Shown here: positions 56,934 to 58,211 of the stretch, piece by piece
Layout of the letters: every line of letters starts with the position of its first letter
Numbering within the stretch: position 1 is the first letter of the stretch
The notes under the pieces: model-generated
What the model was told of the DNA's origin: nothing
The model's database searches: none
What the model saw: only the letters and a program-made list of their open reading frames with translations
Source of the DNA: an uncultured Acidobacteriota bacterium
GTDB lineage: Bacteria > Acidobacteriota > Thermoanaerobaculia > UBA5066 > Gp7-AA6
Direction of reading: 5' to 3'
Length of the DNA stretch: 64,000 bases
Assembly (NCBI GenBank): GCA_963805495.1
Contig: CAWDUQ010000001.1
Span: 131,432-195,431, forward strand
Made by a program: the position numbers and the translations under genes

Positions 56934-57014
56934 GGCCTAACGCTTGCATAGGCTGTAACTTCGACTTCCTAAGCGATTCTGTCAATCGCTGCATCGCCCA
57001 CCCCCCGCGCCTCT
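56934..57014 (-). other. attI: putative attI site between intI stop and first cassette
   Basis: GCCTAAC half-site at 56936 followed by non-attC sequence up to intI stop codon (57015). Confidence 0.5.
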
Positions 57015-58211
57015 CTATTCATCTACGTCCTCGGCGTCCGAATCATCAGGAAGTTCCTCACCGGCCAAGAGCAAGCGCTCCGGCGGCGCGGGCGACGTCA
57101 GATATCTAGACTGCGACGAAAGCTGTCTAGTGTTCGGACCGCCAGAGGTGCCGGCCCACAGGATGTCGGCAGGGCTGCGGACGCCGCGCCCGCCACGGTT
57201 GAGTACGTGGGTGTAGATCATGGTCGTCTTGACGTCTCGGTGGCCGAGAAGCTCCTGGATGGTGCGGATATCGTAACCCTCTTCGAGCAGGTGGGTGGCG
57301 AAGGAGTGGCGGAAGGTGTGGCAACTGATCCGCCGGGAGATGCCGACGTCGAGGACGGCTTTCCGCAGGGCCCGCTGGATGACGGTCTCGTGCAAGTGAT
57401 GGCGGCGCTCGGGTTGGCCGGAGGGAGTGGGGGGCGGCGGGGGCGAAGCCGAGGCGGGGCGGCGGGGGCGGTTGGCCTCGGAGCCGCGGGGGTCGTGGCT
57501 GCGGTGCTCGCCGGGAAAGACGTACTGCCAGCCCCACTCGCGGTCGGCGCCGGGGAACTTCCTGGCGATCGAGTCCGGCAGGTAGACGCTGCCGAAGCCG
57601 TCGGCGAGGTCCTTCTCGTGGATGCGCTTGACGCGGGAGAGCCAGGTGGGCATCTCGGCGCGGGCGACGAGAGGGAAGGGGACGACGCGGTCCTCGCCGC
57701 CCTTGGTGTCGCGGACGACGATGCGGTTGTTGCCGAACTCGAGGTCCTTGACGCGCAGGCGCAGGCACTCGAGGAGACGCATGCCGGTGCCGTAGAGAAG
57801 GGTCGACACGAGGCGGGGGGTGCCGTTCATGCGGCCGAGGATGCGGCGGACCTCCGAGCGGGTCAGGACACTCGGCAGGCGGCCGGGGCGCTTGGCTCGG
57901 ATCACGGTGTCGAGGTCGGGCAGGGGCTTCTGGAGGACGTGGCGGTAGAGAAACATCAATGCCGAGAGGGCCTGGGTCTGGGTGGACGCGCTGACGGGGC
58001 CTTCGACGGCGAGGTGGGTCACGAAGGCGTTGATCTCGGGCTCGGCCATCTCGAGGGGGTGGCGCTTCTGGTGAAAGAGGATGTAGCGGCGGATCCAGCC
58101 GACGTAGGCCTCCTCGGTGCGCAGGCTGTAGTGGCGGGCGCGGATCGCCTGGCGCACGCGGTCGAGCAGGCGCGGCGGGCCGGGGGGCGGTGGCGCGGTC
58201 GAGGGCGGCAC
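57015..58211 (-). CDS. intI: integron integrase IntI (tyrosine recombinase with IntI-specific additional domain)
   Basis: [74 protein letters not shown]; colinear with IntI1; Pro/Arg-rich insertion in additional-domain region. Confidence 0.9.

Follow-up and report, generated by a model that had tools for sequence, protein, structure and literature searches.

Does the integrase gene of this locus read toward its cassettes or away from them, and is the arrangement a functional one? The window, i.e., the whole stretch of 64,000 nucleotides (nt) of an uncultured Acidobacteriota bacterium that was analyzed here, carries an integron integrase gene (intI) and about 100 gene cassettes with their attC recombination sites. 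A preliminary description had proposed that intI is co-directional with the cassettes and that the primary site attI lies at the 3′ end of intI, as in the inverted-integrase layout of Treponema denticola and of non-proteobacterial phyla. This proposal fits the published layouts (PMC3607928, PMC4889954, PMC8352920), and we consider it very probable that the locus is a sedentary chromosomal integron of the inverted-integrase layout, with the minus-strand order intI, attI, and ~100 cassettes, each of which consists of an open reading frame (ORF) followed by attC. The structural features of a complete integron were found, which are an IntI with the additional segment and the catalytic residues, a cluster of attC sites, and an attI beside intI. 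The ~100 similar attC sites (more than ~20) and the imuA-imuB-marC flank, which is syntenic with that on the 4.1-Mb contig of a sister genome, are those of a sedentary chromosomal integron. The classical divergent layout does not apply, as the start of intI (58211) faces toxin-antitoxin, marC, and imuB genes without attC, and attI lies 3′ of the stop codon. The main parts are the following.

57015..58211, minus strand: intI, integron integrase, 398 amino acids (aa), coordinates including the stop codon; assigned by TIGR02249, PF13495, PF00589, and the alignment with 2a3v
56935..56994, minus strand: attI, with the conserved block GCTTAGGAAGTCGAAGTTACAGCCTATGCAA (56974-56944) ahead of the crossover heptamer GTTAGGC (56941-56935)
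56368..56934, minus strand: first cassette, with an ORF at 56923-56438 and a 76-nt attC at 56443-56368
1..56934, minus strand: cassette array of ~100 cassettes, attC span 238-56443, every top strand being the minus strand; the array exits the low-coordinate end of the window

The integrase gene and its protein

The assignment of 57015-58211 on the minus strand to intI was confirmed. The ORF is intact and codes for a tyrosine recombinase of the integron-integrase type, which matches the NCBIfam model TIGR02249 "integron integrase" with 434 bits (cutoff 265), contains the Pfam domains PF13495 and PF00589, and aligns over its full length with the crystallized VchIntIA of Vibrio cholerae (PDB 2a3v; E=4e-83). 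The IntI-specific additional segment, which sets integron integrases apart from XerC/D (PDB 2a3v alignment), is present as EWGWQYVFP (aa 225-233), with W228 corresponding to W219 of VchIntIA and the alignment spanning VchIntIA residues 212-234. According to the same alignment and the motif positions, the catalytic residues R-K-H-R-H-Y are all intact (R145, K170, H298, R301, H324, Y333). The start codon of intI is GTG, and the stop codon of a ParE-like gene lies 3 nt before it. Directly after the IntI-specific segment, between DPRG and RRHH, the protein has a Pro-rich low-complexity insertion of ~20 aa (aa ~244-263), and it ends in an acidic C-terminal tail of ~50 aa (aa 350-398) with the terminal residues DEDVDE. 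Insertion and tail are limited to a clade of four genomes, i.e., the window and the related loci L081 (the sister genome), L001, and L002. The final 15 nt of intI (GACGTAGATGAATAG) are invariant across these four, while the IntI tails otherwise diverge.

The cassette array and its attC sites

The heptamer GCCTAAC/GTTAGGC occurs 191 times in the window, against 4.8 expected occurrences. Pairing of the motifs gave 97 attC hairpin sites, 73 of them with a length of 76 nt and 13 with a length of 118 nt. A covariance model, built from 42 distinct 76-nt attC sites and run with filters off at every position of the 64 kb, added four degenerate, distal sites (1808-1883, 2485-2560, 5769-5844, and 10582-10651), whereas no attC was found within 56944-64000, where the best match had an E-value of 0.37. 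Thus, ~100 attC sites are present, each of them beyond the stop codon of intI, and the earlier statement that none lies upstream of the intI start holds for the 5.8 kb up to the window end. The stems are well preserved, as 98.5% of the alignment cells are paired and four pairs show compensatory changes; as a control, pairing falls to 22-42% once the partners are slid by 1-3 columns. More than 80 sites retain near-perfect stems, and the mean column identity is 86%.

Repeated families without an ORF make up about one third of the cassettes (window 21073-56443), and two of these families stand out.

e.g., 55599-56086 and 54828-55315: 481-bp ORF-less family, 363-bp body plus 118-nt attC, 11-12 copies, 84-89% identical
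e.g., 55309-55598, 56080-56367, and 53879-54168: 290-bp ORF-less family, 211-215-bp body plus 76-nt attC, ~21 copies, 72-100% identical

These families have a flat codon-position GC content and body lengths that vary by 1-2 nt, and conserved stretches are interleaved with hypervariable patches. A T-run comes after GCCCTCCTGCCCAGGGC on the minus strand of the 290-bp family, and the sister genome, too, has the 481-bp family (L081, 17200-18044). The ORF-less cassettes could be carriers of promoters, small RNAs, or terminators. Rfam at gathering thresholds gave no match in the whole window, which places the ORF-less cassettes outside the curated RNA families, and RNAalifold on the 481-bp cassette found compensatory changes almost only in the attC stem and not in the body, hence no support for a structured RNA. 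Among the cassettes with ORFs, toxin-antitoxin types occur (BrnT toxin, RHH antitoxin, DUF2442) at 13390-13698, 17103-17345, and 29400-29804, all on the minus strand.

Orientation of the cassettes

The positions of the motifs alone cannot give the strand of the cassettes, because attC sites are near-palindromes. Three independent tests, i.e., linkage, ORFs, and extrahelical bases, place the cassettes on the minus strand like intI. Firstly, the 363-bp body occurs in 11 copies in differing contexts, and in 11/11 the 118-nt attC is found on its low-coordinate side, while the site on the high-coordinate side varies. Since an attC belongs to the body located 5′ of it on the top strand, this linkage identifies the minus strand as the top strand. 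Secondly, 48 clear ORFs outside the ORF-less families are on the minus strand, of which at least 12 are supported by Pfam matches. They mostly start 8-20 nt past the cassette boundary (GTTAGGC), and 13 stop at the TAA inside the R″ heptamer GCCTAAC. Pfam matches were obtained solely for minus-strand ORFs (short-chain dehydrogenase, alpha/beta hydrolase, GNAT, TonB_C, BrnT toxin, RHH antitoxin, thioesterase, DUF2442, and others) and for none of the five plus-strand candidates tested, so that the original estimate of about 90% minus-strand cassette ORFs is, if anything, too low.

Thirdly, the strand follows from the bulged bases of the folded sites, a check that the preliminary description had itself proposed. 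Extrahelical bases are by definition on the R″-L″ arm, 6 bp apart, and the arm of the first one sets the strand that is recombined (PMC2727003, PMC7439510). DNA folds of all 97 sites gave at least 77 plus-strand hairpins with the bulges C16 and T23 (counted from the 3′ end) on the 3′ arm, separated by 6 bp and at 9 and 16 nt, respectively, from the R box. The site closest to intI may serve as an example.

56368..56443, plus strand (bottom strand): attC with the R box GCCTAAC/GTTAGGC, an unpaired spacer of 5 nt vs. 2 nt, and the extrahelical bases C (56428) and T (56421)

Here as well, the 3′ (R″-L″) arm bears C and T, at the same distances from the R box (9 and 16 nt) and from each other (6 bp). 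As the extrahelical bases are on the 3′ arm of the plus strand, the plus strand is the bottom, recombinogenic strand; the reading direction of the cassettes is thus that of intI, on the minus strand. The strand of recombination therefore agrees with the orientation of the ORFs, and a conflict between the two, which had been named as an outcome that would speak against the proposal, was not observed. GC skew, considered as an indicator of the direction of replication, was left aside because gene orientation and the attC repeats confound it.

attI and the first cassette

The last occurrence of the heptamer in the window is at 56935-56941. It had been described as lying 80 bp past the intI stop, which is correct if the heptamer itself is included in the count; the stop (57015) and the G of GTTAGGC (56941) are actually 73 nt apart on the minus strand. 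The heptamer is preceded by the 31-nt block GCTTAGGAAGTCGAAGTTACAGCCTATGCAA, which includes GTTA-like repeats and is identical in the sister genome, and the similarity of the two genomes ends immediately past GTTAGGC because their first cassettes differ. A lone GTTAGGC in a conserved block, together with a break of synteny exactly there, argues for the crossover site of attI. Moreover, the motif AAGTTACAGCCTA[TA]GCAAnnGTTAGGC is located 63-74 nt past the intI stop in all four genomes of the closest clade (window, L081, L001, L002). By this comparison the region 3′ of intI behaves as an attI with a putative crossover in GTTAGGC. The ORF of the first cassette (56923-56438, minus strand) starts with an ATG 11 nt past GTTAGGC and codes for a predicted membrane protein of 161 aa for which no Pfam match was found.

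From established integron biology, the attC of a circular cassette would be recombined by IntI, as a folded bottom strand, with the double-stranded attI, and the exchange would take place between A and C of the R box. Cassettes that are newly acquired would accordingly enter beside intI, with their ORF directed away from intI on the same strand, and excision would proceed via attC × attC recombination.

Related loci and phylogeny of IntI

The layout was compared among 81 related loci, which were sorted by the position of attC sites and by the arm that bears the bulges, and extended with the covariance model; many stayed unclassified. A first attC detector (strict energy plus RYYYAAC) missed most sites in other taxa and was replaced by a relaxed version with an extrahelical-base filter and the covariance model. 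In 14 loci including the window, the array lies 3′ of intI and its top strand is co-directional with intI, at IntI identities of 97% down to ~55%. These loci were drawn from Acidobacteriota, Thermoanaerobaculia, Blastocatellia, Acidiferrales, Eisenbacteria, Omnitrophota, and Gemmatimonadales, whereas the classical layout was found in five loci, from Verrucomicrobiae, Methylobacillus, Gallionella, Methylobacter, and Lampropedia. In two loci of Blastocatellia, L007 (2139-3298 and 12362-13506) and L062 (615-9809), attC-like sites flank intI on both sides or are of mixed strand polarity, which suggests a second array or a rearrangement.

In a neighbor-joining tree of 82 IntIs, a single branch splits the 14 inverted from the five classical loci in 79/100 bootstraps, and the subclade of the window is supported with 100%. 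Placement of IntI in a phylogeny had been suggested as a further check, and the protein groups with IntIs that have 3′ arrays, with moderate support in a tree that holds no Treponema, Chlorobium, or Rhodopirellula references of verified layout. The same part of the tree contains IntIs of Planctomycetia and Chlorobaculum; their contigs stop right after intI, so that the layout is unreadable.

Cassette turnover and genomic surroundings

The nearest species-representative genomes by IntI are metagenome-assembled genomes of Acidobacteriota with 79-80% identity. In the sister genome, IntI is 97% identical and lies on a 4.1-Mb contig with the same order as in the window, namely imuA, imuB, marC, antitoxin, intI, and cassettes; no attC was found there within 10 kb upstream of intI. 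The backbone of the two loci is 84-94% identical, whereas the cassettes they have in common are 97-98% identical and occupy different positions in the array. Cassettes that are closer to each other than the backbone and yet repositioned argue for ongoing cassette movement relative to the sister genome and not for a fossil array, and they point, albeit indirectly, to attI × attC and attC × attC recombination that would be catalyzed by IntI.

The genes upstream of intI are all co-directional with it.

ending at 58215, minus strand: ParE-like toxin gene, 3 nt before the intI start
58753-58505, minus strand: Unstab_antitox (Pfam)
59271-58831, minus strand: PIN toxin (Pfam)
59572-59249, minus strand: RHH antitoxin (Pfam)
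60220-59600, minus strand: marC, conserved neighbor
62221-60260, minus strand: imuB-like gene, conserved neighbor
63189-62218, minus strand: imuA/RecA-like gene, conserved neighbor
63240-63461, plus strand: helix-turn-helix (HTH) gene, 73 aa, divergent from imuA

The two toxin-antitoxin pairs between marC and intI (RHH/PIN and Unstab_antitox/ParE-like; 58215..59572, minus strand) are largely absent from the sister genome, which has only an antitoxin there. They were considered as degenerate cassettes, which was rejected since the attC-like match in this region was never better than E=1.4; they are not members of the array. The marC, imuB-like, and imuA-like genes (59600..63189) are chromosomal context and not parts of the integron. 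The genes imuA and imuB are accessory genes of SOS mutagenesis, and dnaE2 is not adjacent to them at these loci. They are found upstream of and co-directional with intI in six genomes, at IntI identities down to ~58%.

window, 58211-63240 (minus strand)
L081, 5800-10000
L001, 840-4082
L002, 2100-5376
L005, 1923-4333
L021, 92-2821

Within the imuB ORF and the 3′ end of imuA, the window contains four copies of a palindromic element of ~149 nt (60451-60599, 61519-61667, 61711-61859, and 62253-62401; core GTAGGGGCGGCC..GGCCGCCCT), which resembles repetitive extragenic palindromes or miniature inverted-repeat transposable elements. The copies leave the reading frames unbroken and contribute repeated "VVGAGLVPALPSSVAEEGGHKGRPYDGS" peptide segments within the IMS domain; altogether, the window has ~258 nt more of this palindromic sequence than the sister genome.

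Transcription of the array

With intI reading toward the array, it follows from the geometry that the cassette promoter Pc should lie outside the 5′ end of intI, since a Pc there would point away from the cassettes. No terminator and no sigma-70-like promoter were predicted between intI and the first cassette, with an E. coli-type consensus that may not suit Acidobacteriota, so that read-through from the intI promoter is plausible. Most likely, the attI-proximal cassettes are transcribed at least partly by such read-through, which would be the weakest step of the proposed mechanism.

It is nevertheless quite possible, although not what we favor, that transcription does not depend on intI read-through and starts at a Pc of its own, located in attI or within the final codons of intI, or at promoters borne by cassettes, e.g., the ORF-less ones. 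A putative Pc has been reported beside attI in Treponema-type integrons (PMC4909258). In line with this, four genomes whose IntI tails otherwise diverge agree fully in the attI block and in the final 15 nt of intI (GACGTAGATGAATAG), a TTGACA/TTGACG hexamer is located within the attI region of the window and of L081, and the third of the cassettes that belongs to conserved ORF-less families could supply promoters or RNAs. However, binding of IntI to attI explains the conservation of the block equally well, the hexamer is missing from L001 and L002, and the TTGACA has no acceptable -10 element at 16-18 nt. Furthermore, no sigma-70-like site passed the scan in 56300-58900 or in 37000-56950, which is weak negative evidence given the same E. 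coli-type consensus.

Regarding read-through from the intI promoter, a separate promoter for intI outside of coding sequence has no room, because the stop of the ParE-like gene is only 3 nt before the GTG of intI. The sole sigma-70-like site in 58200-63600 is at 63209-63181 (minus strand), just 5′ of imuA and beside the divergent HTH gene. One could therefore speculate, even if we regard it as rather unlikely, that imuA, imuB, marC, the toxin-antitoxin genes, intI, and the attI-proximal cassettes would form one unit under a damage- or stress-responsive promoter upstream of imuA. For such a unit speaks that intI ends a string of closely spaced, co-directional genes, with every gap from imuA through intI being <80 nt in the window, and that this string continues into the cassettes across attI without a predicted terminator; the lone promoter-like site and the linkage of imuA-imuB with intI in L001, L002, L005, L021, and L081 point in the same direction. 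If true, one promoter would couple accessory genes of an error-prone polymerase, cassette shuffling, and the expression of attI-proximal cassettes. A paper linking imuAB with intI was not found in the searchable literature. The motif GTTC-N7-GTTC, which we take to be the LexA box of Acidobacterium capsulatum, gave 53 matches in the window with one mismatch allowed, vs. 51 expected, and none of them upstream of intI or imuA, which is evidence neither for nor against SOS control.

Alternative explanations for the locus

Several observations have to be held against a functional integron of the inverted-integrase layout. The Pro-rich insertion of ~20 aa after the IntI-specific segment may affect the activity of IntI, the distal end of the array falls outside the window, and read-through has been deduced from predictions with a promoter consensus that is perhaps unfit for Acidobacteriota. 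The IntI tree is distance-based, lacks a Treponema reference, and supports the split between inverted and classical loci moderately (79%). [quoted passage not shown] Changing G to C cut recombination just ~2.7-fold in that study, and it was the arm and not the base that set the choice of the strand (PMC2727003). The second base of the window sites is the usual T in canonical spacing. The C is common to the acidobacterial inverted loci L081, L001, L002, L003, L005, and L040 and is also found in one classical-layout locus of Verrucomicrobiae (L016), whereas the proteobacterial classical loci have the textbook bulges G and T.

One could assume that the array is a fossil, with an integrase that was inactivated, e.g., by the Pro-rich insertion, and cassettes that are passively inherited. 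The unusual insertion beside the IntI-specific segment and the long C-terminal tail would agree with that, as would the several degenerate attC sites in the distal part (1-11800). Yet the ORF is intact with 6/6 catalytic residues, and the insertion is common to the whole subclade, hence maintained. More than 80 attC sites have near-perfect stems with compensatory changes, and the content and order of cassettes next to the conserved attI differ from those of the sister genome, with shared cassettes being more similar than the backbone. A fossil array is therefore very unlikely.

Even less probable is a recent local inversion of intI within a classical integron instead of an ancestral functional arrangement. 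Such a secondary inversion has been reported for a class 1 integron of Acinetobacter baumannii 1656-2 (PMC4889954), and inverted IntIs are paraphyletic according to Cury et al. (PMC4889954). Here, however, the order intI-attI-cassettes recurs in 14 loci over IntI identities from 97% to ~55%, the attI block is fixed at 63-74 nt past the stop in four genomes, the upstream imuA-imuB synteny is conserved, and no inverted repeats were found flanking intI. Finally, a misread orientation, with plus-strand cassettes in a classical divergent integron, could appeal to near-palindromic attC sites whose motif cannot tell the strands apart and to the minus-strand bulge being a G, as the first extrahelical base usually is, but it is hardly conceivable, as this G is on the 5′ arm and thus on the wrong arm for a bottom strand (PMC2727003), the linkage is 11/11, ORF starts, stops, and Pfam matches are all on the minus strand, and the lone attI heptamer is at the end of intI.

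Comparison with known integrons

A co-directional intI was described in 2004 in Treponema denticola and also in other Treponema species (PMC3607928, PMC4909258). According to the same papers, T. denticola ATCC 35405 (Coleman et al. 2004) resembles the window in that its intI is transcribed toward attI and co-directional with a long array, that an attI with a GTTRRRY heptamer lies between the 3′ end of intI and the first cassette, and that the integron is chromosomal and sedentary. The hosts differ (Acidobacteriota vs. Spirochaetota), and so does the GC content, which is ~63% in the window; the two are likened here by layout. The distance between intI and attI is 73 nt past the stop in the window, compared to ~270 bp from intI to the first ORF for Treponema-type clones (PMC4909258).

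The same layout defines the likeness to the "inverted integron-integrase group" (Boucher et al. 2007, cited in PMC4889954). The IntI of the window clusters with inverted IntIs of Acidobacteriota, Gemmatimonadota, Eisenbacteria, and Omnitrophota, and the phyla named for the group include Planctomycetia and Chlorobaculum, the IntIs of which are in the same part of the tree as that of the window. The monophyly of the group is disputed, since Cury et al. found it paraphyletic (PMC4889954), and the neighbor-joining bootstrap obtained here is 79%. Ghaly et al. described inverted IntIs as "a sub-clade within the soil/freshwater clade" and built a taxon-specific attC model for Acidobacteria (PMC8352920).

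With the superintegron of Vibrio cholerae (VchIntIA and its V. cholerae repeats, VCR), the locus has in common that it is sedentary and chromosomal with homogeneous attC sites (>100 cassettes in Vibrio, ~100 here), that cassettes are mostly of unknown function, partly repeated, and include toxin-antitoxin cassettes, as in other large chromosomal integrons, and that the IntIs align over their full length. Unlike in the window, intIA of V. cholerae is transcribed divergently from its array, the VCR has a G and not a C as its first extrahelical base, and the central unpaired spacer is 5/5 nt instead of 5/2 nt. Class 1 mobile integrons (IntI1/attI1) belong to the same recombinase family and also have RYYYAAC/GTTRRRY motifs and extrahelical bases 6 bp apart, but their intI1 is divergent, Pc is within the intI1 coding region, and they are mobile with few cassettes.

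The locus thus adds a well-resolved example to a known, inverted kind of integron; the architecture itself is not new, and the current picture of integrons is left unchanged by it. As a clean example of the inverted layout outside of Treponema, with a complete platform, ~100 cassettes, and a sister genome for comparison, it is well suited to ask where Pc is located, whether the expression of cassettes and integrase is coupled, and whether the C at the first extrahelical position co-varies with the integrase.

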